Shown in pieces: positions 297 through 22,158 of a stretch of DNA of 36,911 nucleotides; within the stretch, counting starts at the first letter, position 1; every line of letters begins with the position of its first letter. A model generated the notes under the pieces. That model was not told the DNA's origin, made no database searches, and worked only from the letters and a program-made list of their open reading frames with translations. Location: NCBI GenBank assembly GCA_045634345.1, contig JAZRAB010000097.1:1-36911 (forward strand). Direction: 5' to 3'. Source of the DNA: Candidatus Flemingiibacterium sp. Its GTDB lineage: Bacteria > Bacillota > Clostridia > Oscillospirales > CAG-272. The position numbers and the translations under genes were made by a program.

Positions 297-602
297 ATGT
301 CTGTAATTAATCTTGATAAAAATAACTTTAATCAAACCGTAAATACCGATAAACTTGTGCTTATAGATTTCTGGGCACCGTGGTGCGGTCCTTGCCGTAT
401 GGTATCGCCTATTGTCGATGAGATAGCTGAGGAGAACCCCGATGTTGTAGTAGGCAAGGTCAATGTCGATGACGAAGCAGAGCTTGCCCAAAAATTCGGC
501 GTCATGAGTATTCCTACGCTGATCGTAATGAAGGATGGGGCAATCATAAATCAGTCTGTCGGTGCGAAGCCGAAGGAACAGATTCTAGAGATGCTCAAGT
601 GA
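297..602 (+). CDS. trxA: Thioredoxin
   Basis: WAPWCGPC active site and SIPT cis-Pro motif. Start moved to MSVINLDK after the GAAAGGA RBS. Confidence 0.95.
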   Translation: MSVINLDKNNFNQTVNTDKLVLIDFWAPWCGPCRMVSPIVDEIAEENPDVVVGKVNVDDEAELAQKFGVMSIPTLIVMKDGAIINQSVGAKPKEQILEMLK

Positions 603-1274
603 TTATCTTGCAAGAGATCGAAGTCTTGATTTGTCAATAATTGCGATACCTTTGCGAGACACTTCCACTATCCCTTCGGAAGAGAAATATTTTAACATGC
701 GTGTAACGACCTCACGGGCGGATCCCATATATTTGGCGATCTGCTCGTGAGTTAATTTTATAGTATCCGAGCCGGTTTTAGAGGCTTCATCAATAAGAAA
801 TATCGCAAGCCTCTTATCCATGCTCATAAACAGTATCTGCTGCATTACCCACATTACATCGGAAAACCGGCTGACGGCAGTTTCGAGTGCAAATATTTTT
901 ACAGCCGGCACACGCTCGGAAATCGTCGCAAAAACGCCGCCGCTTACTACACAGCAAGTGCTGTCCTCCTCGGCGTCAACAAATACGTCAAAGGTTATAC
1001 TCTGTATAACGCATGAGGCAGAGAGCATACAAATGTCTCCCGGATAGAGCCTGTAAAGCGTGATTTCCTTGCCTTCGTCCGAAAGTATGTAGAGCCGCAG
1101 ACAGCCGGATTCAACCAATATCACACCGGTACACTCGCTGCTGTCATGCACAGTTGCACCTTTTTTATAATTTACAATTGATGACCCTCGGCATAAATCC
1201 TCGCGCTCACTATCCTGTAAATCTTTCCAGAACGGAAAGTGCTTTTCGTAAACCGGTATAAACGGACATTCCAT
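603..1274 (-). CDS. Crp/Fnr family transcriptional regulator
   Basis: cNMP-binding-type domain (GCLRLYILSDEGKEITLY) and C-terminal HTH (LTHEQIAKYMGSAREVVTRML). Start moved to MECPFIP after the GAGGGGG RBS. Confidence 0.9.
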   Translation of the reverse strand: MECPFIPVYEKHFPFWKDLQDSEREDLCRGSSIVNYKKGATVHDSSECTGVILVESGCLRLYILSDEGKEITLYRLYPGDICMLSASCVIQSITFDVFVDAEEDSTCCVVSGGVFATISERVPAVKIFALETAVSRFSDVMWVMQQILFMSMDKRLAIFLIDEASKTGSDTIKLTHEQIAKYMGSAREVVTRMLKYFSSEGIVEVSRKGIAIIDKSRLRSLAR

Positions 1275-1354
1275 TGACAAGCCCCCTCTGCGGATGGATG
1301 ATTGTTTTATATCATTATACCATGAAAATGCGAATACGTCAATTGTTATGAATG

Positions 1355-2752
1355 TTAGTCGATAACTCTTGCTTCGTTTTTCGCGGCTTGTTTTCTCTTG
1401 ATTTCTCGTGCTACACGTATGAGAAGAACAGCGGCGAGAATTGCGGCAAGCGCGTTTACACCAACGAAATTCAGCCAAATTCCGTCAAGACCGAGTCCCC
1501 AAAGCGCACCCAGCATTAAGAGAGGGAAGACAAGCGCCACTGATACGGACATAATCGTCGCTTGTACCGGCTTTTCGATTGCGCTGAAAAAGCTTTGTGT
1601 AGTGACTGCTATCCAACGGAAAAGATAGGCAAAACAGAAAAGCCTTATTGCATGGGTAGAGATTTCAAGAAGCTTTACATCCTCGGCATTAGCGAATAGC
1701 GATGCGATAGCTCCGGAGAAGAAAAACATAATAGAAGTTGATACAAGACCGACTACAGCGGTGCCGATATATGAACGTCTTACAATTTGCTTGACGCGAG
1801 TGTAATTTTCCGCTCCCCAATTATATCCGATTGCAGGGGCGAGAGAATCGCTGATCCCATAGAGAAGCGGCCAGCAGAGATCGCTTGAGTACATGAGGAC
1901 AGCGTAAACCGCTACTGCAGTTGTTCCGCCGCCTTCGCCGAAAACTTTAACTCCGATAGTCATAAGAGAAATGTTCATAAGAATTGATGTGACACGTCCC
2001 GCAATATTGCTCAGGAAAATGGGTGAACCGCAGGCGGCAATTTGCTTAAACATTGCTATATGAAATTTTGGCTTTGCGAATTGAAGCAGTGTCTTTCTCA
2101 TTAGAAAAGGGATCATGGCAGTTACAGAACAAATGCACATTGCAATAGATGTAGCAAGGGCAGAGCCTACAACATCCATTTCGAGACCGAAAAGGAAAAA
2201 CACCAAAAGTCCGAGGGTTATCACATTGCAGAAAATGTTGATCACCATGCTTGTTTTGATGTAACCGCTTATGCGCAGATAGTTGTCCATTGCAAAAAAG
2301 ATAGTGGTCAGCGGACTGCAGAGCGCATATGTACGCAGATATCTGACGGACGTTTTGAGAAGTATATCGTCTGCTCCCATCATTTTTGATAACGGTTCTG
2401 CGGCAAAAAACATGATGCTTCCCATCAACAGAGATGCGAAAAATATCATAATGATCGAGCAGGAGAAAACATTGTTCGCGGTCGTGTGATCTTCGCGTCC
2501 AAGCGCGATGGAAATAGGCACCGAAGCACCGACGCCTATAAGATCGGCGAGGGAGAAATTGATCATTACGAGCGGCATTGCGATATTGACCGCCGCAAAT
2601 GCTCCCTCTCCGAGTGTCTGACCGATAAAAGCGCCCTCGATGATACTGTATATTGACATGGCGAACATGCTTATCATGCCGGGCAGAGCTACGACAAAAA
2701 ATAGCTTCCACGGCTTCATTGTGGCGTACATAATTTCAGCCTTCATTTTCAT
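1355..2752 (-). CDS. MATE family efflux transporter
   Basis: About 12 hydrophobic segments in two repeats, with MATE motifs (ALPGMISM, GVGASVPISIALG, IGYNWGAENY). GGAGGT RBS upstream of 2752. Confidence 0.9.
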   Translation of the reverse strand: MKMKAEIMYATMKPWKLFFVVALPGMISMFAMSIYSIIEGAFIGQTLGEGAFAAVNIAMPLVMINFSLADLIGVGASVPISIALGREDHTTANNVFSCSIIMIFFASLLMGSIMFFAAEPLSKMMGADDILLKTSVRYLRTYALCSPLTTIFFAMDNYLRISGYIKTSMVINIFCNVITLGLLVFFLFGLEMDVVGSALATSIAMCICSVTAMIPFLMRKTLLQFAKPKFHIAMFKQIAACGSPIFLSNIAGRVTSILMNISLMTIGVKVFGEGGGTTAVAVYAVLMYSSDLCWPLLYGISDSLAPAIGYNWGAENYTRVKQIVRRSYIGTAVVGLVSTSIMFFFSGAIASLFANAEDVKLLEISTHAIRLFCFAYLFRWIAVTTQSFFSAIEKPVQATIMSVSVALVFPLLMLGALWGLGLDGIWLNFVGVNALAAILAAVLLIRVAREIKRKQAAKNEARVID

Positions 2753-2849
2753 TTTACACCCGCACCTCCCAAAAACTTGCTTTTCATAACACATTTATAG
2801 TTGAATACACTTTAAATTAAGATGTATTTATATTTTAAAAATAAAAACA

Positions 2850-2887
2850 GACTATAATATTATAGTCCGTTTTTTTGCTGTTGTCAA
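2850..2887 (-). promoter_or_regulatory. sigmaA promoter of the MATE gene overlapped by a perfect 18-bp palindrome
   Basis: Minus strand TTGACA (2887-2882)-17 nt-TATAAT (2864-2859). GACTATAATATTATAGTC is at 2850-2867. Confidence 0.65.
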
Positions 2888-2942
2888 TAGGTTAGGTGGT
2901 TTTATGGGCATTTATCCGACTGCGTTTTCTCGAAAATTTGTC

Positions 2943-4247
2943 TCAGGGCATATTCTTTTTATCATCAATGGCTGGGTTGTCGATAAGCTCTCCGTTTTCG
3001 GTAAAGCGTGAGCCGTGGCAGGGGCAGTCCCACGAGTGCTCGTCGGGATTATACTTCAAAGCACAGCCGAGATGTGGACAGCGCGGTGCTGTAGGGGTCA
3101 AAAGTCCTACTAGCGATTCAAAAGCATTGACGGCAAGCTGCGGGCGAAGCATACTGCGTGAGGGGGAGAAAACAGCGGCGTAGTCACTTTTCTTTTCGCG
3201 CACCAAGTCGGTCAGAAGCATAGCAGAGACCATTGCCGAGGTCATTCCCCATTTATTAAAGCCGGTCGCCACATACAAATCCGGCGTGTTCTTTGAGTAT
3301 TTGCCTATATACGGAATACCGTCAAGCGTCATGCAGTCCTGTGTTGACCACTTGCTCCGGATTTTTGCATTTGGATAATGCGCGGCGGCAAATTCTTCAA
3401 GCTCTTTCCAATTGCCTCCGCTTTTTCCTGTTCGGTGTGAACCGCCTCCGAGCAATAAAAGCTTTCCGTAATTACGAAAATACAAGCCTTTGTCAGACTC
3501 ATCGACATACATTCCATCTACATCCGCTGCATCCTCAATCGCTAAAACGTACGAGCGATGCTGATACAGCTTCAAAAAATATCCTCCGTGCTTGTTGAGT
3601 ATCGGAAAATGTGTTGCCACTATAATTTTTCTGCAATTTATTTCTCCGTGCTCGGTAATCGCTTTGTTTGGCATAAGCTCAATAACCTTTGTATTTTCAA
3701 ATATCGGAAGTCCCTCAGCGATCCCGAATACAAATTTGAGCGGATGAAACTGCGCCTGCTCTTTTATGAGCACGGCTCCTGCCGTTTTGAATGGCAATGT
3801 GGGAGTATCGGAAAATTCTGCTTTGAAGCCGAGACGACTCAGTGCGGCTATTTCCAGCTCTATTTTTGCGCGGTCGCACAGCGAGTACACATACGAATCC
3901 ATTTTTTCGTAATCACAATCAATATTGCGGCACAAATCCGCATATCTGAGTGTGGCACGTATCTGGGTGTCTAAATAAAGCCGGGACTTTTCTGCACCGA
4001 ACTGCTTTATCAGCTTATCGTATATAAGACCGTGTCCGACCGTTATTTTTGCAGTGGTATTCTCGGTGACACCACTGCATATTTGCTTTGCCTCAACCAG
4101 AATGCAATCAACATCTGCTTTTTTTAACATATACGCGCACAAAATCCCGGTAATTCCGCCGCCTATAATAAGCACGTCTGTATTAATGCTTTCCCTCAAA
4201 CAATCAAAATGGGTTCGCCCGGTGTATTCACTCCAAACAGATTTCAT
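2943..4247 (-). CDS. FAD-dependent oxidoreductase with C-terminal Rieske [2Fe-2S] domain (YhfW-like)
   Basis: DVLIIGGGITG dinucleotide fold, ATGFNKWGMT, and Rieske motifs CPHLGC and CPCHGS. Start moved to MKSVWSE. Confidence 0.88.
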   Translation of the reverse strand: MKSVWSEYTGRTHFDCLRESINTDVLIIGGGITGILCAYMLKKADVDCILVEAKQICSGVTENTTAKITVGHGLIYDKLIKQFGAEKSRLYLDTQIRATLRYADLCRNIDCDYEKMDSYVYSLCDRAKIELEIAALSRLGFKAEFSDTPTLPFKTAGAVLIKEQAQFHPLKFVFGIAEGLPIFENTKVIELMPNKAITEHGEINCRKIIVATHFPILNKHGGYFLKLYQHRSYVLAIEDAADVDGMYVDESDKGLYFRNYGKLLLLGGGSHRTGKSGGNWKELEEFAAAHYPNAKIRSKWSTQDCMTLDGIPYIGKYSKNTPDLYVATGFNKWGMTSAMVSAMLLTDLVREKKSDYAAVFSPSRSMLRPQLAVNAFESLVGLLTPTAPRCPHLGCALKYNPDEHSWDCPCHGSRFTENGELIDNPAIDDKKNMP

Positions 4248-8652: not shown

Positions 8653-9173
8653 TTTTCTGCCCTCTGTACTGAATTATCGTATGCCGCTTCATACCATTGA
8701 AGCAGGTCGGTAAGATTGTTTTCGCTGACATAGTTGGCATCATTCAGTAAAAGCTTGAGCATGCGCTCGTCATCGGCAGAGCGGTCTTTTTTCGCCTTGA
8801 ATACTTTTATGAGCATTTTTATCATAAAGCTGTTCATGCCGCGGAGCTTTGCTTTTTGTATTCCGCCTTGAACTGTGAACAACGGAGTGCCGTCCGGTAT
8901 TCTCGCAGCCTTGCGGACCTCGTCAAGCAGGCATCCTGTGTCGCATAAGCCAACGCCGCACACAGCGGCAACATCATATTTTTTTGCGGCATGCCGGTAT
9001 CCCTTTACATTAGTAGCGCACAGCCATCCGAGGTATATAACTTTTGTTCCCTTTTCAAGCTGTTTTGCCGAAGAGTCAAGCTTGTATGCCGGCAAACCGA
9101 TTCTATCGGAGAGAATTTTTGCATATTGTTCTGTAAGTCCGGTGTTTGATGTGTAAACGATTGCTTTTATCAT
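8649..9173 (-). CDS. Flavodoxin-like protein
   Basis: N-terminal IVYTSNTGLTEQYA FMN phosphate-binding loop. GAGGA RBS. Confidence 0.75.
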   Translation of the reverse strand: MIKAIVYTSNTGLTEQYAKILSDRIGLPAYKLDSSAKQLEKGTKVIYLGWLCATNVKGYRHAAKKYDVAAVCGVGLCDTGCLLDEVRKAARIPDGTPLFTVQGGIQKAKLRGMNSFMIKMLIKVFKAKKDRSADDERMLKLLLNDANYVSENNLTDLLQWYEAAYDNSVQRAEK

Positions 9174-9395
9174 TTGCTTGTCCTCGCTTTACTGATGTTT
9201 TATCAAAATATTCCCACAAATTAATTATATCACGTTTTTCATTTATTGCAATTGTTTTTACTCAAATACACAGCACGGTGTGAAGCTTTTTTGCATTGTT
9301 TTAAAGGAAAATGCGAACTTTGATTGATACAGACGAAAAATGCTTTATTTTGCCGTAAATATTGAACTTTTGCGCAATTATTAATTGAAAAGCAC

Positions 9396-9424
9396 TTGAC
9401 ATAAGAGCTTACTTGTGGTAAAAT
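9396..9424 (+). promoter_or_regulatory. sigmaA promoter P1 of the peptide/surface operon
   Basis: TTGACA-17 nt-TAAAAT with extended TG. Confidence 0.6.
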
Positions 9425-9544
9425 TGTAGTGTTAGGACATTATTGCCATAAATATCAGCGAATTTTTAGGTAAAATTGCGAATAATTATCCATCATGACG
9501 GAACTCAAACAAAACAAACGTCGAAAATATGTCGAAAAAATGTG

Positions 9545-9573
9545 TTGATTTTATCTGATTTGTGTGATATAAT
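9545..9573 (+). promoter_or_regulatory. sigmaA promoter P2 of the peptide/surface operon
   Basis: TTGATT-17 nt-TATAAT with extended TG. Confidence 0.6.
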
Positions 9574-9728
9574 TAAAAGAGGCAAATTTTTTTGCCGCTG
9601 TAAAAGTGTATAGTTGCCAAGTGCCTAACTCGGTATACTTTACGCTGTACTACTATGCTTAGCTTGCTTGACAAGAACTTTACATATATCCTTGCCAAGA
9701 AATTTTTCTGAAAGGAGGACACACGATA

Positions 9729-9860
9729 ATGAAGAAGTTTGAAATGCCCGAGATCCAGGTTGAGGTTTTTGCCATTGCCGATGTTATCACTGTATCTGCA
9801 ACTGATACTGAACCTGTTAACCCCGGCAATAGCCAGCTTCCTTTCCTGCCCGGAGTTTAA
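9729..9860 (+). CDS. 43-aa RiPP-like precursor peptide MKKFEMPEIQVEVFAIADVITVSATDTEPVNPGNSQLPFLPGV (not in ORF track)
   Basis: Strong RBS GAAAGGAGG at 9710-9718. Leader F-x-x-P-x-I resembles the lasso YxxPxL RRE motif, followed by DVIT-V-S. The C-terminus is identical to that of the next gene, and a PqqD/RRE gene and a peptidase gene lie downstream. Confidence 0.85.
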   Translation: MKKFEMPEIQVEVFAIADVITVSATDTEPVNPGNSQLPFLPGV

Positions 9861-9883
9861 TCTTTGGTTATGGTATTTCAATT

Positions 9884-9966
9884 GTGACATTATTGATGTC
9901 ACGTTGAAAATCCCCCTGGGCTTTGACCCGGGGCATGTGTTCGAAAATTATAGCGAACATGTGCCC
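9884..9966 (+). other. Cluster of three stem-loops between the peptide gene and the SLH gene
   Basis: GTGACAT/ATGTCAC (9884-9902), CCCTGGG/CCCGGGG (about 9913-9933), and a 13-bp stem GGGCATGTGTTCG/CGAACATGTGCCC (9931-9966, two G-U pairs). Confidence 0.55.
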
Positions 9967-10104
9967 GAGGTCGAAGTTATATGTTTTTTGAACATTGTTA
10001 TGGACGCGGTGTTCTCGTTTAACACATATTGTTCATTTTGGTTTGCTAGTTAAAATAAAAAATATCATAGACAAAAAATTTATAACTAGGACGTGGAGGT
10101 TACT

Positions 10105-10992
10105 ATGAAAAAGAGAATTATAAGTTTACTTACTGCCATCGCGTTGACTGCATCTGCAGCATACGCAATTGCTGCGCAGGCGGATGAGCAGAAGGAATAT
10201 ACTGCGGACGCTCTTAACGAGTTGGGGCTTTTCCTTGGAACAGGAAACGGATATAATCTTGAGGGCAAGCTTGACCGTGCATCAAGTATTACTTTGATTA
10301 TAAGAATGCTCGGCAAGGTTGACGAGGCTCTTGAAAATGCAGATAGCTATGTAACTCCTTTTGTTGATGTCCCCGGATGGGCTGTTCCGTATGTCGGTTA
10401 TGCATATGAGAATAATATTACAAAGGGTACAGGTGCGGATACCTTCTCACCGGATGCAGAGGTTACCGAAGCAACCTTCCTTACACTCGCACTGCGTGCG
10501 CTCGGCTATAAGGATACCGGCGAAAATCCGCAGTTTGTTTGGAATAATCCGTATGATCTCGCCAAAGAGGTTGAACTTATCGCTACCGATAAAGCTGCTG
10601 CCGCTGCAGGAGATTCCTATTATCGCGCAGACGCTGTAGAGGTTTTCTGGAATGCACTCGGTGCAGAGCTTGCTGATAATTCCATGACACTTGCGGACAG
10701 ACTTATCGCGCAGGGTGTTTTCACTGCGGATGAATATGAACAGGCAAAGCTGATCAAGGAAGATGGTCCCGATGCGGATGATGCCGATACCACCGCAGAA
10801 CCCGAGGATACCACCGCAGAGCCAGAGGATACCACTGTAGAATCTGGCAATTCGAATAGCAATCAGCTTCCGTTTTTCCCGATGGAACCCGATGCCGAGC
10901 CGGAGGAGACCGATGAAGATAATACAGATGATTCGTCAAATGCTGGCAATGAAGGCAATAAGAATCAGCTTCCTTTTCTTCCGGGCGTTTGA
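10105..10992 (+). CDS. Secreted S-layer homology (SLH) domain protein with acidic Thr-rich tail ending in QLPFLPGV
   Basis: Signal peptide MKKRIISLLTAIALTASAAYA. SLH-like repeats (PFVDVPGWAVPYVGYAYENNITKG...FSPDAEVT; LFLGTGNG...LDRA; YRADA). GGAGGT RBS before 10105. Confidence 0.85.
   Translation: MKKRIISLLTAIALTASAAYAIAAQADEQKEYTADALNELGLFLGTGNGYNLEGKLDRASSITLIIRMLGKVDEALENADSYVTPFVDVPGWAVPYVGYAYENNITKGTGADTFSPDAEVTEATFLTLALRALGYKDTGENPQFVWNNPYDLAKEVELIATDKAAAAAGDSYYRADAVEVFWNALGAELADNSMTLADRLIAQGVFTADEYEQAKLIKEDGPDADDADTTAEPEDTTAEPEDTTVESGNSNSNQLPFFPMEPDAEPEETDEDNTDDSSNAGNEGNKNQLPFLPGV
10786..10842 (+). repeat. 21-bp in-frame tandem repeat (about 2.7 copies) encoding DTTAEPE
   Basis: GATACCACCGCAGAACCCGAG / GATACCACCGCAGAGCCAGAG / GATACCACTGTAGAA. 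Confidence 0.9.
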
Positions 10993-11067
10993 TTTGATCG
11001 GACATTTGTTTAAACCTTCTGCGAATATTTTCAGTATTTTAAATTTCATTTCCGTGTGGAGGATTGC

Positions 11068-11775
11068 ATGAGCCAATATTACCGTGTTGCTGACCTTATA
11101 GTCGAAATGGATTCATTTGGGCGTACGGTGAGTCAGGCTGAACCTTACCGTGTGGACGGTGAGTTTAAGCCGGATATATGTATTTCCGTTGATTGGCGTC
11201 CATTAAAAGAAAATCAGCCGCACCTTTCGGAGGAAGACTGCGAATACATTGAGACCGGTGCATCCTTTTATCATCAGCTTGTAAAGTTTGACGGTATGTT
11301 CCTTCATTCATCGGCGATTGTGATGGATGGAAAGGCGTATCTGTTTTCCGCACCGTGCGGTACCGGTAAATCTACACACACAGCACTGTGGCGGAAGGTT
11401 TTTGGCGAGGACAGAGTTCAGATGCTGAACGATGACAAGCCGGCGCTTCGTCTTGTTGACGGAAAATGGTATGCTTACGGAACCCCGTGGAGCGGAAAGT
11501 ATGATATAAGCTCTAATATTCGTGTTCCTCTTGGCGGAATCTGTATTTTAACTCGCGGGAAAGTTAATAAGATTGAGCCGTTTTGTGGAGCAAAAGCAGT
11601 GAGCGCACTGCTAGAACAAACAACAAGGCAAAAAAATGTTGCATTTATGCAAAAAATGCTCGATTTACTCGACAAACTTATAACAGATGTTCCGATATGG
11701 CGGCTTGAATGTAATATGGATCCTGAGGCGGCTATATTATCGCATCGTGTGATGTCCGGAGAAGCGGACAAATAA
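11068..11775 (+). CDS. HprK-related P-loop kinase/ATPase of the type found in RiPP clusters
   Basis: FLHSSAI catalytic His, Walker A APCGTGKST and MLNDD acidic pair, matching the HprK/PEPCK-like fold. GGAGGA RBS. Confidence 0.75.
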   Translation: MSQYYRVADLIVEMDSFGRTVSQAEPYRVDGEFKPDICISVDWRPLKENQPHLSEEDCEYIETGASFYHQLVKFDGMFLHSSAIVMDGKAYLFSAPCGTGKSTHTALWRKVFGEDRVQMLNDDKPALRLVDGKWYAYGTPWSGKYDISSNIRVPLGGICILTRGKVNKIEPFCGAKAVSALLEQTTRQKNVAFMQKMLDLLDKLITDVPIWRLECNMDPEAAILSHRVMSGEADK

Positions 11776-11804: not shown

Positions 11805-12068
11805 ATGAAACTGAAATCCGGATTTATTCTCAGAGAGGTTGCGGGAACTTGCGTTGTTGTTCCTACCGGTGCTGAGCTTGATTTCAACGGAATGATTACT
11901 CTTAATGAGACCGGAAAGACGCTTTGGACTTGTCTTGAGAATGAAACAGACGAGAATGCGCTTACAGCGGCACTTCTTGCCGAATATGATACAGATGAGG
12001 CTACTGCGAGAGCAGGCGTTACGGCTTTTCTCGGTAAGTTGAGAAAACATGGCTTCATTGAAGAATAA
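11805..12068 (+). CDS. PqqD family peptide chaperone / RiPP recognition element (lasso B1-like)
   Basis: 87 aa with F-ILREVAG, ITLNETGKTLW, LLAEYD and FLGKLRKHGFIE, a typical PqqD pattern. Confidence 0.88.
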   Translation: MKLKSGFILREVAGTCVVVPTGAELDFNGMITLNETGKTLWTCLENETDENALTAALLAEYDTDEATARAGVTAFLGKLRKHGFIEE

Positions 12069-12519: not shown

Positions 12520-12610
12520 TATTATCAATAAATGTGCTTGCGCATGAGTGCTTGATATAAGTTTGCGCATAGCATTTTATACTATATATTAAATGGCAAA
12601 GGGGATTTTT

Positions 12611-13480
12611 ATGAATTATCAGTCAACTAATGAGATGAATGAAGTCGAAGCTGTAGAAGTCGATTTGTTTGATCTTATAAAATTGCTGTGGGAAAAACTG
12701 TGGATAGTCGTTTTGTCCATGATCGTTTGCGGTGCTATTGCATTTTCTGTATCAATTTTTGCAGTTACACCGATGTACAGTGCGTCCGCGATGCTGTACG
12801 TAAACAATAGTTCAGCGACCGTCAGCGGCATCCCGATTACAATAAATTCATCACAGCTTTCAGCAGCAAGGGCACTCCTCGATACATATGTGGTTATCTT
12901 AAAAACGAGAACCACTCTCGAAGCAGCGATAGAAAAGGCTGATCTACCATATTCCTACAATGAACTTCAGGGGATTGTTTCCGCTGAGTCTGTAAATGAT
13001 ACAGATATTTTCAGAATCACCGCAACCTGTGCTGACCCCGACGACGCAAAGCTTATAGTTGACACCCTTGTTGAGATTCTTCCCGACAGAATTTCTGATA
13101 TCGTTGACGGAAGCTCGGTGCGCATCGTTGACCGCGCCGTACGACCGGTAGGGCGTTCATCACCGTCATATACGAGATATGCAGTTATCGGTGTTATTAT
13201 CGGCGCTGTGTTAAGCTGCGCGATAATAATAATCGAAGACCTTACGAATACAAGCGTGCGAGATGAGGAATATCTCAAGATGAGATATAATATTCCGATC
13301 CTTGCCGTGATTCCCGAGGCATATGCTGTTTCAAAGAAAACGTACGGTTATAAATATGCTTACAGATCAAGGTATAAATACGGTTATCATGGCAGATATG
13401 GCTATAATCGAAATACGCATGGTAACATATATGAACAGAGTTATGAGCAGGCTCAGAACGGAATAGGTGGCGACAAATGA
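12611..13480 (+). CDS. Polysaccharide co-polymerase / chain-length regulator (Wzz/CpsC/YveK family)
   Basis: EVDLFDLIKLLW, TM1, TPMYSASAMLYV, SSP...TM2 and IPILAVIP, plus an extra Tyr-rich tail. Confidence 0.88.
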   Translation: MNYQSTNEMNEVEAVEVDLFDLIKLLWEKLWIVVLSMIVCGAIAFSVSIFAVTPMYSASAMLYVNNSSATVSGIPITINSSQLSAARALLDTYVVILKTRTTLEAAIEKADLPYSYNELQGIVSAESVNDTDIFRITATCADPDDAKLIVDTLVEILPDRISDIVDGSSVRIVDRAVRPVGRSSPSYTRYAVIGVIIGAVLSCAIIIIEDLTNTSVRDEEYLKMRYNIPILAVIPEAYAVSKKTYGYKYAYRSRYKYGYHGRYGYNRNTHGNIYEQSYEQAQNGIGGDK

Positions 13481-14406
13481 AATTAAATGATAAAAAGGCA
13501 AATGCCTATGAAAAAGCTGCCAAAGCTGAAAGCAAGAAGATATCAAAAGCAGATAAGAAAAAGAATGGTCCTTCTATTGAAGAAGAGGCGGCAACCATCG
13601 GAAAGAACCGCTCATTTGCAATGGCGGAAGCCCATAAGCGTCTGCGAACCAATATAATGTTCAGCTTTGCGGATGACAGTGAATGCCACATTATCGGTGT
13701 TACAAGTGCTATGGCACACGAAGGTAAAACTACCACGTCCATAAATCTTGCTTATGATTTAATGAAAGCAGGAAAAAAGACGCTGCTTATCGACGCGGAT
13801 ATGCGCTTGTCACGTATTCCAAAGCTTCTTGAGATCGAAGCGGCGCCAGGACTCAGTAATATGCTTGTCGGTAAAAACGATAATCAGAACGTAGTGCGCA
13901 CGATTACAGCTCATGATGGGCTTCAACTGATTACCTGCGGCGATATTCCGCCGAACCCGACGGAGCTTCTCTCGTCAAAGCGCTTTGAACTTTTGCTTAA
14001 TGCTCTTAAAGAAACATATGAATATATTGTAGTTGACCTTCCTCCCGTATCGGAGGTCTCGGATGCGCTTATTGCATCGAAGCTTGTGGACGGTATGATA
14101 GTTGTCGTGAGACAGGATTATGTTGATAAGCGCTTGCTTGACGATACCATTCATCAGCTTAATCTGAGTGGTGCTCGTATTATAGGTCTTGTAATGACAT
14201 GTGCGCAGTACAGGACAAAATACGGAAAGTATAAATACAAGAAGAGCGGCGGATATAAGTACGGCTACCGCGGCGGTTACGGTTATGCTAAACGCTCCGG
14301 CTACTATTCAAGGGGAGCCTATAATTATCATCATTCTCCCTACAGCTACGAATACGCCCAGCACCATCAGCATCATAAAAATCAGAACAGCTCTAAAGAA
14401 GAGTAA
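13477..14406 (+). CDS. BY-kinase, CpsD/CapB family tyrosine-protein kinase
   Basis: EAHKRLRTN, Walker A AHEGKTT, Walker A' LLIDAD, Walker B IVVDLPP and a C-terminal Tyr cluster. Confidence 0.92.
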   Translation: MKLNDKKANAYEKAAKAESKKISKADKKKNGPSIEEEAATIGKNRSFAMAEAHKRLRTNIMFSFADDSECHIIGVTSAMAHEGKTTTSINLAYDLMKAGKKTLLIDADMRLSRIPKLLEIEAAPGLSNMLVGKNDNQNVVRTITAHDGLQLITCGDIPPNPTELLSSKRFELLLNALKETYEYIVVDLPPVSEVSDALIASKLVDGMIVVVRQDYVDKRLLDDTIHQLNLSGARIIGLVMTCAQYRTKYGKYKYKKSGGYKYGYRGGYGYAKRSGYYSRGAYNYHHSPYSYEYAQHHQHHKNQNSSKEE

Positions 14407-14409
14407 TGT

Positions 14410-15195
14410 ATGAAAGAAGAGATTCTGCAACCCCCCTCGCGTTTTATTCCTCGTGTGGATTTTCATACACATATTTTACCGCAGGTCGATGACGGAAGCA
14501 GCTCGCTTGAAGAAAGTGTGCAAATGGTGCAGGCTCTTGCAAAATCAGGTGTCACGTGTATCGCTCTTACGCCGCATTTTTATCCGCAGTATGATGATCC
14601 CGAACGGTTTCTTGCAAGACGTGACCGCGCATTTGCGGATCTTCGCAGTGCGGTTATAGCCGACTCGGATATTTCACATGTTCATCTTATTCCGGGTGCG
14701 GAGGTAGAGTATTTCGACGGTATTGCTTGTATGAAAGACTATCCCGGGCTAAAACTCGGGAAGACCAAATGCTTGCTTGTCGAGATGCCTCACGGCGAAT
14801 GGACATCACATATGGTTGACGATATTCTTCAACTTAACAACAGTGGGATTTTCAGAGTGGTTATTGCTCATGTTGAGCGGTATCTCTTTTCGCAAAAAAG
14901 GGATGTTATACATACCCTCATTGACGATGGGGTCATAATGCAATCCAATACGGATTTCTTCATTGATCGCAGAACCTCCGGAAAAGCTGTGCGGATGTTA
15001 AAAAAAGGTTTGATACATATTCTTGGTACCGATTGTCACAGCATGACAATGCGTCCGCCGAGCATTCAGGAAGCGTGCGATATTATAATCAAGCGCGCAG
15101 GAGAAGACGTACTTCAGGGAATAATGTATAGAGCACACGATCTGCTTGTCGATGATATACAGATTGTTGCTGATAGCACTTCTGTACAGGTGTAG
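14410..15195 (+). CDS. PHP-family protein tyrosine phosphatase (CpsB/YwqE)
   Basis: DFHTHILP, DDG, TPH, AHVERY and GTDCH metal-binding motifs. Confidence 0.92.
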   Translation: MKEEILQPPSRFIPRVDFHTHILPQVDDGSSSLEESVQMVQALAKSGVTCIALTPHFYPQYDDPERFLARRDRAFADLRSAVIADSDISHVHLIPGAEVEYFDGIACMKDYPGLKLGKTKCLLVEMPHGEWTSHMVDDILQLNNSGIFRVVIAHVERYLFSQKRDVIHTLIDDGVIMQSNTDFFIDRRTSGKAVRMLKKGLIHILGTDCHSMTMRPPSIQEACDIIIKRAGEDVLQGIMYRAHDLLVDDIQIVADSTSVQV

Positions 15196-15199
15196 ATTA

Positions 15200-16120
15200 A
15201 TGAAGAGTAATTACAAGATCAAATATATAATCTTACTTTGTGTATGTCTTAACTGCATCGGTGTTTGTTTATATCTTAATTTTTTATACCAGACGAAGAT
15301 GCAGGATGACGGCGATTCACTTGAATCCCTGCGAGACTCAATAAAGCAGTACGAGTCAATCATGCTCGATGCAAACACCACGGCGCCTGCGCCCACTACA
15401 GAGGATGCTGGAGCGACTCCCGATACAGAGCCGGACCCGTTTATTACTGTCGATACGACCGAGGCAGATTCTGTAGAGACTACGGTAAGACCGCAGGTCT
15501 ATAAGCCGTCGGCTACCTTGAATTTCGATAAGCTTTGGGCGGTCAATCCCGAAATACACGCTTGGATAGACATTGAGGGGACAAAGATTGATTATCCTAT
15601 TCTGCAGAGTAAGAATAATGACAGAAAATATTTAAATACCGCATATGACGATTCTCCGTATATCGGAGGCGCGATATTTACTCAGGCGACATATAATAAT
15701 ACCGACTTCAATGATCCCGTTACACTCATTTACGGACATACGATGCGGTCGGGAACAATGTTCGGACAGCTTCAAAAAAGCTATTCGAGCGTACAGTCGT
15801 TTGAGGAAAACAGCGATATTGTGATATATCTGCCCGGTGAAGTCAGACATTATACTGTTTTCGCCGCAGTACCGTATGATGCGATGCACATACTTCATAC
15901 ATACGATTTTTCGAACACCTATTGGTACAACCGATTTTTCGATGATGTTGGACGAATCCGTGAAATAGGTGCGAATTTTGACAGAGAGGCTTTCCCCGAA
16001 GCGGGTGATCGAGTTATCATCCTTTCGGTTTGCTTAAATGAAGATACTGCCAGAAGATATCTTGTTATGGCAGCCTTCGAGGAGGATCTCGCAGACAATG
16101 CGAGGGATTCCAAAAACTAA
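15200..16120 (+). CDS. srtB: Class B sortase
   Basis: N-terminal TM, Thr/Pro/acidic linker, WIDIEGTKIDYPILQ, IYGHTM (His), ILSVC (Cys) and RYLV (Arg). Start moved to MKSNYK. Confidence 0.85.
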   Translation: MKSNYKIKYIILLCVCLNCIGVCLYLNFLYQTKMQDDGDSLESLRDSIKQYESIMLDANTTAPAPTTEDAGATPDTEPDPFITVDTTEADSVETTVRPQVYKPSATLNFDKLWAVNPEIHAWIDIEGTKIDYPILQSKNNDRKYLNTAYDDSPYIGGAIFTQATYNNTDFNDPVTLIYGHTMRSGTMFGQLQKSYSSVQSFEENSDIVIYLPGEVRHYTVFAAVPYDAMHILHTYDFSNTYWYNRFFDDVGRIREIGANFDREAFPEAGDRVIILSVCLNEDTARRYLVMAAFEEDLADNARDSKN

Positions 16121-16153
16121 ATTATATAATTTTTTACAAAGGAGATATTTGCT

Positions 16154-16855
16154 ATGAAGGCTTTACGCATTGCGACGATTTTACTTATTGTTGTGGCTTC
16201 GTTTGTTATGGCAGCCAATGCTGTGGAGTTTACCCCTAGTGTTGAAATTAAGGATGGACCTGAGATTATTGATCCTACTGATCCGGATGATCCTAAAGCA
16301 AGTGAGGACGAGTTAGAGATTACTCCGGTTGGACGCCTTGATGGTGAAGACCTTGATGAGGATATTAAAGACAATCTTACTGATGCAAAAAAAGACCTTG
16401 AGGAGAACGATTGGGAAGATATCCTTGATGATTTCGAGGACATATGGAATGAAGCTACCGACGGTGCCCCTGTTGAACATGCAATCGTCAGTGATATTTT
16501 CGATGTCCGCTATAAAGAAGATCCCACTGAGGACGGAACCGTTACAATTATGTTTGACATGAAAATGCAGGGGCTTGATTCGGATGATATTTTTGTTATC
16601 ATTGCTAAGCCAGAGGGCGGTGAATGGGCACCTATTGATTATACAATAAGCGAAGACGGAATTATAACCATTACCGTTGAAAACAAGTCAGTCTTTGCAA
16701 TCATTAAAGATAAGAGCGCAATGCCTGACATTGGCCCCGACGGTCCTGCTACAGGCGTTAGTCCGTATTTTGCTCCCGCAATTGTCGGTGCTGTATTCTT
16801 CGGTATTGCCGCTGTGGTTTGCGTGAATAAGATAGCTAAAAAAACAGAGAGATGA
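16154..16855 (+). CDS. Acidic cell-wall-anchored protein, probable substrate of the adjacent sortase
   Basis: Signal peptide MKALRIATILLIVVASFVMAANA. C-terminal GPATG followed by a hydrophobic segment and a KIAKKTER basic tail. Confidence 0.75.
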   Translation: MKALRIATILLIVVASFVMAANAVEFTPSVEIKDGPEIIDPTDPDDPKASEDELEITPVGRLDGEDLDEDIKDNLTDAKKDLEENDWEDILDDFEDIWNEATDGAPVEHAIVSDIFDVRYKEDPTEDGTVTIMFDMKMQGLDSDDIFVIIAKPEGGEWAPIDYTISEDGIITITVENKSVFAIIKDKSAMPDIGPDGPATGVSPYFAPAIVGAVFFGIAAVVCVNKIAKKTER

Positions 16856-16881
16856 AAATTCAGTTGAAAGGATGCTAGAAA

Positions 16882-17865
16882 ATGAAAAACAGAAAACAGC
16901 CAAAAGGTATATTTATTGTTGCTGTCTTACTTGTTTTGCTTGTGTCCTTGATCGTTGTCTTTTCGCTTGTCGAAAAGGCTATTAACCACATGAATGAGCT
17001 GCCCGATTCGCCTGATTATACCGATTCGGGCAACTCTCGCATTTACTATAATGATCACTGGTATACTCTCAATGAAAATATAGAGAGCATTCTGGTGCTC
17101 GGCATTGACTCGATGACAACACCGGACGGCTCGAAGGCTGATTCGCATCAGGCGGATTTCATTGCTTTGCTTGTCGTCGATAAATTGGATCACAGTTTCC
17201 GTGTTCTCTATATTAACCGCGATACTATGACTGAGATATCTCAGATTAATGATATCGGCGAGCAGTATGGCACATTCACCGCACAGCTTGCCTTGGCGCA
17301 TGCATACGGAAGTGACGGAAAGATGCGATGTCGCAATACCGTTTCTGCAATCGAGCATTTACTCTATGGTACTAACATTGACCATTATTTCTCCGTCACA
17401 ATGGATGCAGTCCCGATAATCAACGACAGTCTTGGCGGAGTGACAGTGACGCTTGAGGAAGATCTTCCTGCACTTGGCGAAGAGTTTTTGAAAGGCGCAG
17501 AGATCACCCTTAAAGGTGCAGACGCGCTTTCGTTTGTCCGCTGGAGAAGTGACGAGGCGGAGCAGAGTAATCTCGGCCGTATGGAGCGTCAGCGTCAGTA
17601 TATTGCGGCGTTCTTTGATAAATATACGACGGCGGATCTTGAAGATTCCTTTGAAACAATAACAGATATCGACGAATATATTGTTTCCGACTGCACTTTT
17701 AACCAACTTACGCTTCTTTTGGAGCGTCTGCAGGGATATTCACATAAAGGTACATTCTCTCTTGAGGGCGAAGCTGTCAAGGGAAGTGAGTATATTGAAT
17801 ATTACATTGATGAAAATGCGGTACAGGCTACAGTTGTAGATCTTTTTTATAAAATTGAGGAGTGA
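16882..17865 (+). CDS. LytR-CpsA-Psr (LCP) family glycopolymer transferase
   Basis: N-terminal TM, ILVLGID, ADFIAL, INRDT, LAHAYG, GGVTV, FVRWR and RMERQRQY. Confidence 0.9.
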   Translation: MKNRKQPKGIFIVAVLLVLLVSLIVVFSLVEKAINHMNELPDSPDYTDSGNSRIYYNDHWYTLNENIESILVLGIDSMTTPDGSKADSHQADFIALLVVDKLDHSFRVLYINRDTMTEISQINDIGEQYGTFTAQLALAHAYGSDGKMRCRNTVSAIEHLLYGTNIDHYFSVTMDAVPIINDSLGGVTVTLEEDLPALGEEFLKGAEITLKGADALSFVRWRSDEAEQSNLGRMERQRQYIAAFFDKYTTADLEDSFETITDIDEYIVSDCTFNQLTLLLERLQGYSHKGTFSLEGEAVKGSEYIEYYIDENAVQATVVDLFYKIEE

Positions 17866-17874
17866 CAACCTACA

Positions 17875-19917
17875 ATGAACAACAAATCTAATGGTATAAT
17901 GGAGGGCAATGATGAGGCAACCTCACGCAGACAGCCACATCTCCCACTCCAGATATATGATTTAATATTGCTGATTGCAGCAGTTGTTCTGTTGCTTGGA
18001 TTTAATCCGAGCAGTGCGGAAAAGTTCGGCATACTCCCTTTGGCGATTCATTTATTGCTATCTTATATATGTATTTTGTCATTCAGATCATTCGGCGGCG
18101 TTTATAGGCAGATTTGGCGATATAGCTCTCCGTTTTCGTATATAAGATTAATTACTTCCGATCTTTTCGCAGGAATTGTATATTACATACTTGTTCAGAT
18201 CCTTCCGATCGAAAAAATTGCGTTTGTACGTGCTTTTTCGCTTGTTGCATTAAATCTTTTACTTGCTGTAACAATACGTCTTTTGTATCAATTTTTATAT
18301 GAGCGTGCAAACAGACCCGGTAAGAGTTCATCTTTTTGGCGCTCTACTATGAAGCTTATGACCGGTCTTTCGTTTGACAATGAAAATGCCGGCAAAGCTT
18401 CTGAAGGTGCTTCAACAAATAACAAAATAAGAATCGCAATTGTTGGCGCAGGACAAGTTGGAGCTATGCTTGCTGAAGAGCTTATCAAGAATCCGAGAGC
18501 AGCTTACATACCGTGTTGCTTTATTGACATAGACCGTTCCAAGATAGGACGTGAAATTTACGGTTTGCCGGTTTTTGGTGGAGATAATGAGGTGGCACAA
18601 GCCCTTTCAGCACTTTCTGTGCAGGAAATCGTATTTGCTCTGCCTTGCGTTGAGCCTGAACATATAAAAAATCTTTATGAATACTATAAGAATACCGGAT
18701 GCAAGATCAAGGTGTACGACTATCCGGTAATGCAGACCGCCGATAAGAGCAAACGCCAAATGCGTGAATTTGATATTGAGGAATTGCTCTTCCGTAAGCC
18801 GATTGTGGTTAACGATGACCGAACGAGGGCTTATTATAAGGATAAAGTGGTCTTGATTACGGGCGGCGGCGGTTCGATAGGCAGTGAGCTTTGTCGACAG
18901 ATTGCGAGAATGGAACCAAGAGCGCTGATTATTCTTGACGTTTATGAAAACGGCGCATATGATATCCAACAGGAGCTACGAATTGCCTATGGCAACAAGC
19001 TCAAGGTCAGTGTAGAGATTCTTTCCGTATGTGATAAGTCCGGAATGGAGAAGGTTTTTAAGGCATACAACCCACACATTATTCTGCATGCGGCGGCGCA
19101 TAAACATGTTCCTCTGATGGAGCATAACTGCTGTGAGGCGGTTAAAAATAACGTGTTTGGTACGCTCAATGTGGTTGAGTTGGCTGAAAAGTACAATGTC
19201 GAGCGTTTTATCATGATTTCCACTGACAAGGCAGTTAATCCGACCAATGTAATGGGTGCTACCAAGCGTGTCTGCGAGATGATAATTCAAAGCCACAGCC
19301 GTACTGCGAAAACTACTACATTCAGTGCGACAAGATTCGGAAATGTCCTCGGAAGTGCCGCATCTGTCGTGCCGCTCTTTAAGAGACAGATTATGAACGG
19401 CGGTCCCGTTACAATTACGGACAAGCGCATAATCCGATATTTCATGACTATTCCCGAAGCAAGTCAGTTGGTGCTTCAGTCAGGAGCTATGGCGAAAAAC
19501 GGAGAGCTCTTCGTTCTTGATATGGGCAAATCCATACGTATTCTTGAGCTTGCAGAAACTATGATACGTCTCAGCGGCTATGAGCCATACCGCGATATTG
19601 ATATCGTGGAGACAGGTCTTCGCCCGGGCGAGAAGCTTTATGAGGAGCTGCTTATACGTACCGGTGAGCTTGATAAAACAGAAAACAGCTTGATATTCAT
19701 TGAGCGCGATGCCCCACTGTCAGACAAAGAATTGAATGAACGTCTTGACATTCTTCGCGCCGCGCTTGAAACTATTGATGATGCCGTAGTTAAGGATGCA
19801 CTAATGCGTGTCGTTCCGACATACCATGATCCTAGTTCTGTTAATTCGGATGCTGCCGCGCAGGAGCGAATTGAGAGATTGTCAAGCGCCTCTGAAGGGG
19901 TAACGGTAACTGTATAA
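17875..19917 (+). CDS. CapD/PglF-like membrane-bound UDP-GlcNAc 4,6-dehydratase (polysaccharide biosynthesis protein)
   Basis: Four N-terminal TMs, IVGAG, ITGGGGSIGSEL, HAAAHKHVP, ISTDKAVNPTNVMGATKR, RFGNV and RPGEKLYEEL. Confidence 0.92.
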   Translation: MNNKSNGIMEGNDEATSRRQPHLPLQIYDLILLIAAVVLLLGFNPSSAEKFGILPLAIHLLLSYICILSFRSFGGVYRQIWRYSSPFSYIRLITSDLFAGIVYYILVQILPIEKIAFVRAFSLVALNLLLAVTIRLLYQFLYERANRPGKSSSFWRSTMKLMTGLSFDNENAGKASEGASTNNKIRIAIVGAGQVGAMLAEELIKNPRAAYIPCCFIDIDRSKIGREIYGLPVFGGDNEVAQALSALSVQEIVFALPCVEPEHIKNLYEYYKNTGCKIKVYDYPVMQTADKSKRQMREFDIEELLFRKPIVVNDDRTRAYYKDKVVLITGGGGSIGSELCRQIARMEPRALIILDVYENGAYDIQQELRIAYGNKLKVSVEILSVCDKSGMEKVFKAYNPHIILHAAAHKHVPLMEHNCCEAVKNNVFGTLNVVELAEKYNVERFIMISTDKAVNPTNVMGATKRVCEMIIQSHSRTAKTTTFSATRFGNVLGSAASVVPLFKRQIMNGGPVTITDKRIIRYFMTIPEASQLVLQSGAMAKNGELFVLDMGKSIRILELAETMIRLSGYEPYRDIDIVETGLRPGEKLYEELLIRTGELDKTENSLIFIERDAPLSDKELNERLDILRAALETIDDAVVKDALMRVVPTYHDPSSVNSDAAAQERIERLSSASEGVTVTV

Positions 19918-19922
19918 ATATT

Positions 19923-19959
19923 ATAAAGAAAGAGCCGAGTATATCGGCTCTTTCTTTAT
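19923..19959. terminator. Bidirectional intrinsic terminator between convergent capD-like and wzt
   Basis: 16-bp perfect inverted repeat ATAAAGAAAGAGCCGA / TCGGCTCTTTCTTTAT. Confidence 0.85.
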
Positions 19960-21227: not shown

Positions 21228-21260
21228 AAATTGCACCTCGTTTTTTTGAAGATGAACTTA

Positions 21261-22115
21261 TTATACGGTGTCCATAAAGGTTTTTTCGACCTTGCTGAAT
21301 ATGACCACACCAAGTGTCACTACCGCTGTCATTACGACAATGGAAATTATCCAATACAACGGATTTACGGCACCAACGCCGAGGAATATCCATCTGAAGG
21401 TCTCAATGGCACATGTTACGGGATTAAGCATGATAATATTGTATAACTTGCTGTTTGCGAGAGTTGATATCGGGTATACGACCGGAGTTATGTACATCCA
21501 TAGCTGTACGCCGAATGTAACCAGCATGGCTAAATCTCGGTATTTTGTTGTTAAGCTTGATACGATAATGCCAAATCCGAGTCCTAAGAACCCGAGGTAT
21601 AGAATAATAAGCGGTAAGAGGATGATGTACAGATAGTTGGGGGTGATTGCACCGGTTATCAGATAGTAGACCCAAAACAGCAAAAACATGGTAAACTGTA
21701 CGAGAAAGTTGATTGCTGAGGAGAGTACCGTGGAAATGGGGCTTGCAAGCCTTGGGAAGTAAACTTTGCCGAAAACCCGTGCATTATTTGTAAAGGTGGC
21801 AGAGGTTTGATTAAGGCAGGTTGAGAAAAAAGTCCAAACCGCAGTGCCACCCATATAGAAAAGAATTTGGGGGATTCCGTCTGTTGAAATATTTGCGATA
21901 TTGCCAAATACAAGCGTATAAATAAGCGTGGTCATAAGAGGCTGCAGAATTATCCAGGCAGGTCCTAAAATCGTTTGCTTGTAGATTAGTATAAATCTGC
22001 GCTTGGTGAAGAGCCATATAAGATCACGGTATTGCCACAGCTCTTTTAAATTAATATCAAACCATCCGTTTTTAGCTTTCAAATGGGTATGGTATTTAGG
22101 CAGCGTCTGTTTCAT
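21261..22115 (-). CDS. wzm: Polysaccharide ABC transporter permease (Wzm)
   Basis: ELWQYRDL, YKQTILGPAW, KVYFPR, KYRD, MYITPVVYP and LNP motifs. Start at 22115 fits the AGGAG spacing better than 22124. Confidence 0.9.
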   Translation of the reverse strand: MKQTLPKYHTHLKAKNGWFDINLKELWQYRDLIWLFTKRRFILIYKQTILGPAWIILQPLMTTLIYTLVFGNIANISTDGIPQILFYMGGTAVWTFFSTCLNQTSATFTNNARVFGKVYFPRLASPISTVLSSAINFLVQFTMFLLFWVYYLITGAITPNYLYIILLPLIILYLGFLGLGFGIIVSSLTTKYRDLAMLVTFGVQLWMYITPVVYPISTLANSKLYNIIMLNPVTCAIETFRWIFLGVGAVNPLYWIISIVVMTAVVTLGVVIFSKVEKTFMDTV

Positions 22116-22158
22116 GTTTTTCATCTCCTACAAGTTGATAAACTGACAGATTTATAGG

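Follow-up and report, generated by a model that had tools for sequence, protein, structure and literature searches.

A leader-bearing peptide of gut Clostridia whose tail matches a neighboring surface protein and whose gene lies with RRE, HprK-fold and signal-peptidase-like genes

What does a gene of 43 codons encode when its product appears to combine the leader of a lasso peptide precursor with a core of another kind? The question is raised by an open reading frame (ORF) at 9729-9860 (+) in a 36,911-nt stretch of Candidatus Flemingiibacterium sp. (GCA_045634345.1, contig JAZRAB010000097.1, positions 1 to 36,911), the whole of which was analyzed and is referred to below as the window. The ORF encodes MKKFEMPEIQVEVFAIADVITVSATDTEPVNPGNSQLPFLPGV followed by a stop, is absent from the annotation and lies below the size cut-off of the ORF track. 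An earlier note had described it as an unannotated 43-aa precursor composed of leader and core; the sequence given there is exact, and orthologues occur in genomes of the same genus. We propose that the product is a linear, leader-cleaved peptide, dependent on a recognition element (RRE) of the type used by RiPPs (peptides that ribosomes make and that are modified after translation), and that it serves as a soluble copy of the tail of a surface protein encoded next to it. Taken as a whole chain, we give this account a little more credence than doubt, its first half being much more likely.

On the plus strand the peptide gene is followed in turn by genes for a surface-layer homology (SLH) protein, a P-loop protein with the HPr kinase/phosphoenolpyruvate carboxykinase (HprK/PEPCK) fold, a PqqD-family RRE, an S24/S26-fold peptidase and an exopolysaccharide (EPS)/capsule regulatory block (Table 1). 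The whole order from the peptide to Wzz and beyond recurs in G028, G014 and G013 (G and L numbers denote genomes and family loci, G000 being the window's own genome), and orthologues of the SLH protein were found at L015, L016, L018 and L021. The tail motif of the peptide recurs at the C-terminus of the SLH protein, which carries it twice, as internal NQLPFFP (10864-10881) and as C-terminal NQLPFLPGV (10966-10989); this identity was not among the observations of the earlier note. Four of the eight identical residues in the window are encoded with synonymous codon differences, and L024, L085 and L018 are similar in this respect, which points to selection for identity and not to fresh conversion. 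On the codon comparison the core tail is shown to be kept identical to the C-terminus of the predicted secreted and co-transcribed SLH protein.

Table 1. Predicted features of the peptide locus and the adjoining capsule block, in window coordinates
Feature	Position	Strand	Remarks
Promoter-like site TTGATT-17-TATAAT with TG extension	9545-9573	+	score 10/12
Ribosome-binding site AGGAGG	9713-9718	+	10 nt 5' of ATG; GAAAGGAGGA invariant in three species
Leader, residues 1-23 (MKKFEMPEIQVEVFAIADVITVS)	9729-9797	+	117-sequence family alignment
Predicted core, residues 24-43 (ATDTEPVNPGNSQLPFLPGV)	9798-9857	+	acidic, proline-rich, hypervariable between species
Tail motif QLPFLPGV	9834-9857	+	identical to last 8 residues of the 299-aa SLH protein
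Two stem-loops directly 3' of the peptide stop	9872-9913, 9914-9933	+	no T-run after
SLH protein, 299 aa, secreted	10093-10992	+	signal peptide, SLH domain, acidic low-complexity region; Pfam SLH 2.4e-8
P-loop protein, 239 aa, HprK/PEPCK fold	11056-11775	+	invariant Walker A GTGKST; AlphaFold2 (AF2) pLDDT 93.1
PqqD-family RRE, 87 aa	11805-12068	+	Pfam PF05402 8.9e-18, above cut-off
S24/S26-fold (LexA/signal-peptidase-like) protein, 156 aa	12049-12519	+	proposed leader peptidase
Wzz	12593-13480	+	
Tyrosine-kinase ATPase	13477-14406	+	
CpsB phosphatase	14410-15195	+	
Class-B sortase	15146-16120	+	
233-aa protein, likely sortase substrate	16154-16855	+	signal peptide, acidic domain, GPATG-hydrophobic-KKTER
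LCP	16882-17865	+	
Polysacc_synt_2	17875-19917	+	

Elsewhere the peptide and its neighboring protein end alike in other motifs. With the tail of the peptide given first, these pairs are VGGENQLPLG and VGGENQLPLG (G028), NQLPLG and GGENQLPLG (G014), PLKPNQSPWG and PLQPDQTPWG (G008), AGEEDVFGS and AGEEDIF (G013), PNQTPWG and PNQTPWG (L085, L089 and L096), GGAGNED and GGAGTED (L058, where the partner is a 162-aa lipoprotein), and KDYELPEIPLG and KDYETPEIPLV (L119). The motif classes are QLPFLPGV (window), NQLPLG (L024, L046), NQ[ST]PWG (L018, L085, L089, L096), GEED[VI]F (L021), GGAG[NT]ED (L058) and KDYE[LT]PEIPL (L119). When 40 peptides with a downstream ORF of at least 100 aa were compared with their neighbors, six cognate pairs scored 51 or more, as against a maximum of 37 over 1524 non-cognate pairs, and all eight complete SLH299-like neighbors of a peptide show the tail match.

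Duplication or gene conversion between neighbors could leave such an identity as a functionless trace, and the placing of the two sequences about 1.1 kb apart on the same strand would favor conversion. We nevertheless consider this explanation very improbable given the synonymous differences within the identical tails, the existence of six motif classes that each match within their own genome, and the failure of any of the 1524 non-cognate pairs to reach cognate scores. A third QLPFLP protein of the genome is a 69-aa lipoprotein-like ORF on contig C151 (~10640-10862, minus strand), which has QLPFLPF near its end and finishes in ...GEPIQLPFLPFDTSEGESSQE. A role for QLPFLPGV as a sortase signal was considered and rejected: both proteins end right after the motif, with no anchor, and the sortase of the window has its own adjacent substrate.

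The peptide ORF is not a chance frame, because orthologues stand in place, the differences in the leader are biased towards synonymous ones, and the promoter-like site, ribosome-binding site and hairpin are conserved; by this comparison 9729-9860 is a real gene under protein-level selection. Among 61 genomes of the same genus an orthologue was found at the same position in 8 at E<0.02 (G000 included) and in 13 at E<=1, and the 23 leader codons of G000 and G028 show 8 synonymous and 3 non-synonymous differences. The earlier note had staked its reading on the conservation of the leader in orthologous loci, where the leader is indeed conserved, and its near-perfect ribosome-binding site was also recovered. 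Paralogous leaders, which the same note had proposed to look for, were not found in the genome: the peptide has a single match there, its second hit being at E = 1, and the PqqD protein likewise has one.

The extended -10 block of the promoter-like site is conserved in an alignment of G000, G028 and G014. A second promoter-like site (9396-9424) scores 11/12, yet is not conserved in the three-species alignment. Downstream of the gene, the region 9855-9960 folds with -35.1 kcal/mol (z = -4.27, with 0/200 shuffles equally stable), and the GC hairpin that follows the stop is retained, though with base changes, in both G028 and G014. The terminator search made no terminator call at the two stem-loops, which may represent a processing or attenuation site setting the ratio of peptide to enzymes. 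An Rfam search of 9100-10150 returned just two snoRNA rows, both at chance level (E 0.43 and 0.82).

By the following counts the peptide family is large, unnamed and very common in Oscillospiraceae- and Ruminococcus-type Clostridia. Of 243 candidates retrieved with an eight-orthologue profile, 224 reached E<=0.01, with lengths throughout of 32-66 aa, and a 117-sequence profile, run with HMMER against 1.84 billion cluster representatives, matched 5405 at E<=0.001 (each standing for a 50%-identity cluster) and 114 at E<=1e-10. The best 150 of these matches are 31-70 aa in length except for one repetitive protein of 3961 aa, which contains 36 stretches. The name of the members seen never goes beyond 'hypothetical protein', whether in the sequence search or in ESM Atlas clusters (score 0.89-0.90), and no NCBIfam or Pfam model matched the peptide. 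The 78 loci collected come from Oscillospiraceae, Ruminococcus and Faecousia as well as from other Clostridia of gut and rumen.

The 117-member alignment has the consensus MKKFExPEIEVxxFAVEDVITTSG, with a 23-residue leader ending at S23. Positions D18, I20 and S23 are invariant, and M1, K2, F4, E5, P7, F14, E17, T21 and T22 are conserved in at least 90% of the sequences. The part after S23 was compared in 170 distinct members, a set partly selected by a motif requiring Ser at that position; it is 8-45 aa long (median 14) and net negative in 160 of them. It begins with G in 110 of the 170, with Ala in the window, and its commonest last residues are G (45), F (19) and D (18). Among the orthologues the range is 8-16 aa, several cores being as short as 8-11 residues.

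The leader layout F-x-x-P-x-I (F4-E-M-P7-E-I9 in the window) is also found in lasso leaders of Firmicutes, examples from PMC7533575 being MKKFEVAELVVLNIADTAF and MKSWNTPAIEELNINETAG. In calling the leader lasso-type, the earlier note had pointed to FEMPEI; this block is present and conserved, in the same arrangement as in those leaders. The block F4-x-x-P7-x-I9 is proposed, with weak support from modeling, as the RRE-binding part of the leader. The same note had judged the core to be of a non-lasso type and had placed its acidic residues at positions 4 and 6. The judgement agrees with our results; the count is correct (D4 and E6) if the core starts at S23, and becomes D3 and E5 if it starts at A24. 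Under either start the acids fall outside positions 7-9.

The search for lasso enzymes was negative. The B2 protease model PF13471 had no matches in the window's own genome (90.17% complete) and none among the window ORFs scanned. The single strong PF00733 match, on another contig (C152), is a glutamine-hydrolyzing asparagine synthase by TIGR01536 (526.7 against a cut-off of 267.1), and it reached 225.9 with the lasso cyclase model, whose cut-off is 525; no cyclase was found in the locus or the genome. The cassettes inspected in other genomes contain no cyclase-looking gene, although no search with the cyclase model was made on those loci. We conclude from these comparisons that the peptide is not a lasso peptide, because neither B2 protease nor cyclase was found, the acids are at the wrong positions and orthologous cores of 8-11 residues cannot thread. 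It could still be a lasso precursor if its cyclase and B2 protease were encoded elsewhere or on the unassembled part of a genome that is just 90% complete. The lasso-like leader layout speaks for this, as do the PqqD protein, whose best scores, although under the cut-offs, come from lasso PqqD models, and the HprK-like kinases, NTP_transf_5 proteins and ABC exporters that accompany paeninodin- and pseudomycoidin-type clusters (PMC7533575). Given the empty PF13471 search, an ordinary asparagine synthase as sole strong match, the cassettes inspected elsewhere and the core geometry, we regard a lasso precursor as extremely improbable.

The known clusters closest to ours in content are nevertheless of that kind, namely those of the paeninodin and pseudomycoidin type in Firmicutes, with a precursor, separate B1 (PqqD) and B2 proteins, a cyclase C, an ABC exporter, an HPr-kinase-like kinase and a nucleotidyltransferase. 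HPr-kinase-like kinases and the nucleotidyltransferase PsmN are tailoring enzymes of paeninodin and pseudomycoidin, and kinases of this type phosphorylate a C-terminal Ser, according to PMC7533575. The present system shares with such clusters an aromatic-x-x-P-x-(I/L) leader block, a Thr close to the junction, a stand-alone PqqD RRE and an HprK-fold protein, and in its fuller cassettes NTP_transf_5 and an ABC exporter as well. It differs in that no B2 protease or cyclase was found and an S24/S26-fold Ser-His peptidase stands in their place, and in that cores can be 8-11 residues long and rarely have a C-terminal Ser. The HPr-rel-A and SynChlorMet systems (TIGR04352, TIGR04353, TIGR04249), which supply the best NCBIfam matches of the 239-aa and 87-aa proteins, also pair an HprK-related P-loop protein with a PqqD chaperone; however, the scores fall well short of the curated values (17.9 vs 200, 26.9 vs 35, 22.6 vs 125), the partner genes differ, and so does the host phylum. 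Membership in the HPr-rel-A system was rejected, the first two of these scores being below the curated cut-offs. With its conserved leader and variable core beside an RRE and candidate tailoring and processing enzymes, the peptide has the general make-up of a RiPP precursor, and the system is best filed as an RRE-dependent ribosomal peptide system that is related to the lasso class but not a member of it.

The P-loop protein is assigned to the HprK/PEPCK fold because the fold search matched where the sequence profile did not: Foldseek with its AF2 model returned PEPCK at 5e-6 and HprK/P at 2e-5, whereas the PDB sequence profile gave chance-level rows only (best 0.14, HprK/P 1.2). Its NCBIfam matches, ScmC (5.6e-5) and HprK-related kinase A (1.3e-3), are sub-threshold. 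The RRE that the earlier note had seen at 11805-12068 is confirmed as PqqD-type by Pfam; against the lasso PqqD models of NCBIfam (3e-7 and 4.5e-7) it stays below the cut-offs, at 30.6 vs 70 and 29.9 vs 80.

We read the 156-aa protein, with the aid of its structural model, as a Ser-His member of the S24/S26 clan (SF) that lacks an N-terminal membrane anchor and appears cytoplasmic. This assignment is made because the fold and sequence matches are consistent and the catalytic motifs align, despite marginal E-values. Among the matches listed by Foldseek, ranks 1-38 consist entirely of LexA, lambda cI, UmuD and signal peptidases (SpsB, SEC11, SipA), with a best E of 2e-3 and none at 1e-3 or below. 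The PDB profile gave signal peptidase I (4nv4, 0.0048) and SEC11A (7p2p, 0.044), with GxSMxP, HR and GDN aligned. An alignment of 13 sequences shows G34, S36, M37, P39, H75, R76, G88, D89 and N90 to be invariant, so that S36, the Ser nucleophile in GxSMxP, and H75, the presumed general base, are present in 13/13. The AF2 model (pLDDT 86.4) has a pair of basic amphipathic helices at its C-terminus. Pfam gave no match to the protein at E<=0.01 and at E<=10 a single chance-level row (0.25); on its relatives, which NCBI labels 'S24/S26 family peptidase', the Pfam S24 model is sub-threshold (13.2-13.6 bits vs 23.3). At E<=1e-10 no fewer than 7222 proteins belong to the peptidase family. Compared with SEC11A, Bacillus SipW and Streptococcus pyogenes SipA, the protein has the same fold, GxSMxP, H-R and GDN motifs and Ser-His pair, and the junction of its proposed substrate likewise has small residues at -3 and -1; unlike them, it has no membrane anchor, is encoded with an RRE and is sometimes fused to NTP_transf_5.

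Substrates of signal-peptidase-type enzymes carry small residues at -3 and -1 of the cleavage site, and the rule for lasso B2 proteases is a Thr at -2. The earlier note had applied the second rule and cut before Ser23. In the family alignment T21 is conserved in at least 90% of sequences, S23 is invariant and position 22 is variable; Thr stands at -2 only for a cut before S23, and the -3/-1 reading fits the conservation equally well or better. The penultimate Thr of lasso leaders is described in PMC10368454. Here no B2 protease was found. The conservation of T21-x-S23 and the signal-peptidase-like fold together suggest cleavage after S23, one residue later, giving a 20-residue core. The candidate kinase targets named earlier (S1, T3, T5 and S13 of the core) did not withstand comparison, as they are not conserved; the G028 core, VVGGENQLPLG, contains no Ser, Thr or Tyr. 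We rejected the idea of phosphorylation in the shared tails or at hydroxyls conserved in the core, there being no such residues. T21, T22 and S23 are the only conserved hydroxyls of the peptide and would be the candidate sites if the P-loop protein phosphorylates it.

The predicted complex of the RRE with the peptide, a modeling step the earlier note had suggested for the leader, scored an ipSAE of 0.44, against 0.02 for the best of three controls, with contacts agreeing in at least 98% between runs and a partner pLDDT of 55-56. In calibration 58 of 80 solved complexes attained this mark, as did 2 of 110 mismatched pairs, the band at or below 0.60 holding just 7 of those 80 complexes but both mismatches. 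Solved RRE-leader complexes exist, and the pass may therefore partly reflect likeness to them. The model thus gives weak support to binding of the peptide by the RRE.

The association of peptide and cassette was followed across genomes. Cassette genes occur in the flanks covered for 20 of the 78 family loci; 11 of these have all three genes, 4 have PqqD and S24, 3 have HprK and PqqD, and 2 have a single gene. Peptide-first cassettes were also found in other families of the order (L106, L109, L110 and L111). The fuller cassette at L072 includes an exporter (ABC_membrane and ABC_tran) and NTP_transf_5, and in L056, L069 and L095 an S24/S26-like domain is fused to NTP_transf_5 (PF14907) in a protein of ~489 aa encoded directly after the PqqD gene.

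On the account that we favor, the RRE would bind the F-x-x-P-x-I part of the leader and present the peptide to the P-loop enzyme, which would modify it using ATP. The signal-peptidase-like enzyme would then cut after T-x-S23, freeing the linear 20-residue peptide ATDTEPVNPGNSQLPFLPGV, and the peptide would leave the cell by an exporter of the kind known from the fuller cassettes and not from the window. Outside, the free core would bind where the SLH protein's tethered QLPFLPGV tail binds and act as a soluble competitor or as a signal with a species-specific motif.

Several observations weigh against this account. The other 58 of the 78 loci have no cassette gene within the flanks covered, and many peptides may work without the enzymes or with them at a distance. 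The tail match is confined to a minority of pairs (about 7/40 clearly above the null), was not seen in L106 and amounts in L111 to a weak likeness at most. Cores without any Ser, Thr or Tyr make up 32 of the 170 distinct members. The cassette of the window has no exporter, the genome's only NTP_transf_5 gene is on another contig, the E-values of the peptidase are marginal, and the support from the RRE model is weak. Finally, in 33 of 63 cases a secreted protein of at least 300 aa (300-3300), encoded on the same strand, ends no more than 150 nt before the peptide begins, the peptide sometimes overlapping its stop.

The last of these points, together with the loci that lack a cassette and with sub-families that pair with 143-aa membrane or 150-aa secreted proteins, would fit a peptide that is an accessory of large surface proteins, as an assembly or export helper or a regulator, with its conserved N-terminal half as the working part and with the cassette acting on something else. 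We hold this reading, the main rival, to be unlikely. Of 26 peptide-positive genomes of the order 23 have an HprK-like gene, against 25 of 125 peptide-negative ones, a contrast within a 151-genome sample that is inflated by relatedness, since kin are not independent. The peptide-first order before HprK-PqqD-S24 recurs in several families of the order, and the conserved N-terminus, hypervariable C-terminus, F-x-x-P-x-I block and small-x-small junction are features typical of leaders; the RRE-peptide fold adds weak support on the same side. Of the upstream secreted proteins, which lie at L018-L021, L036, L054, L058, L070, L072 and others, several share C-terminal patterns such as ...SVESYIARM...KF.DSA.... 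Pfam gave no match to the 659-aa protein in L021 and just Transglut_core in the 1229-aa protein upstream of the L072 peptide, a domain also found in an 801-aa protein of the window.

Sub-families with the same leader and other partners were seen at L028, L034, L035, L037 and L038, at L050 and L081, and at L105. Long cores ending ...QPFSIF... are followed by the 143-aa membrane protein, other cores by the secreted proteins of ~150 aa, and a Cys-rich core adjoins a 451-aa unknown protein with PqqD and HprK-like genes.

It is also conceivable that what the cassette really acts on is the SLH protein's C-terminal tail, with the peptide as an in-trans leader or as a decoy that switches the enzymes. 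Tails that remain identical despite synonymous drift, the place of the SLH gene in four genomes, after the peptide gene and before those of the enzymes, and the double occurrence of the motif in SLH proteins would all suit such an arrangement. Most cassettes, however, lack a protein in this position, a Sec signal peptide is present on the SLH protein but on none of the enzymes, and the shared tails are often devoid of hydroxyls (NQLPLG, QLPFLPGV), leaving no obvious site for an HprK-type Ser/Thr kinase. We consider this arrangement quite improbable.

The order of the EPS/capsule regulatory block (12593-19917, plus strand) is repeated in L015, L016 and L021, and the 233-aa protein within it looks like the class-B sortase's own substrate, judging by its sequence. 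Genes at 19956-22124 (minus strand) encode a Wzt-like ABC ATPase with a weak Wzt_C match and an ABC-2 permease, which suggests ABC-transporter-dependent polysaccharide export beside the Wzz/tyrosine-kinase block. Further on, the 801-aa protein (27570-29975, minus strand) combines Transglut_core with a bacterial surface Ig-like domain, and a 706-aa protein (29993-32113, minus strand) has RCC1 repeats; both adjoin an M15 peptidase, an AlgX-like SGNH protein and an MBOAT acyltransferase.

Gram-positive pheromones such as ComX and AgrD join a conserved leader to a strain-specific mature part, and in enterococcal pheromone/inhibitor pairs the product of a small ORF is a competitor of a peptide that is released from a secreted lipoprotein by cleavage. 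The present family is like these in having a conserved N-terminal and a hypervariable, species-specific C-terminal part, and in that a small ORF copies a stretch of a secreted protein. It is unlike them in that no receptor, regulator or two-component system is linked to it in the window, what is copied is a C-terminal tail and not a signal peptide, and processing would be RRE-dependent. A literature search, which extended to articles without their supplements, returned no account of the peptide family and none of a PqqD cassette with an S24/S26 peptidase. Term look-ups in PMC12710340 and PMC7470986 found no mention of HPr, nucleotidyltransferase, signal peptidase, S24 or Ruminococc, nor, respectively, of Oscillospir and of Clostridia.

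These findings describe a family that is very large, has no name and is carried by Clostridia abundant in gut and rumen, and they indicate that ORF-size cut-offs conceal a major gene family. If the proposed account is true, it would add to RiPP leader removal a type of peptidase not found described in the literature searched, show the recognition parts of lasso systems reused for linear peptides, and connect ribosomal peptides with capsule loci and with the C-terminal ends of proteins at the cell surface. More broadly, the system could represent a new class of RRE-dependent peptides derived from lasso machinery, in which a cytoplasmic signal-peptidase-like enzyme replaces cyclase and B2 protease and the products copy species-specific surface-protein tails as a 'tail code' for surface-layer or capsule assembly or kin recognition; in this general form we find the idea doubtful. 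The proposed account itself, if true, offers a directly testable view of species-specific surface signaling in the gut microbiota.

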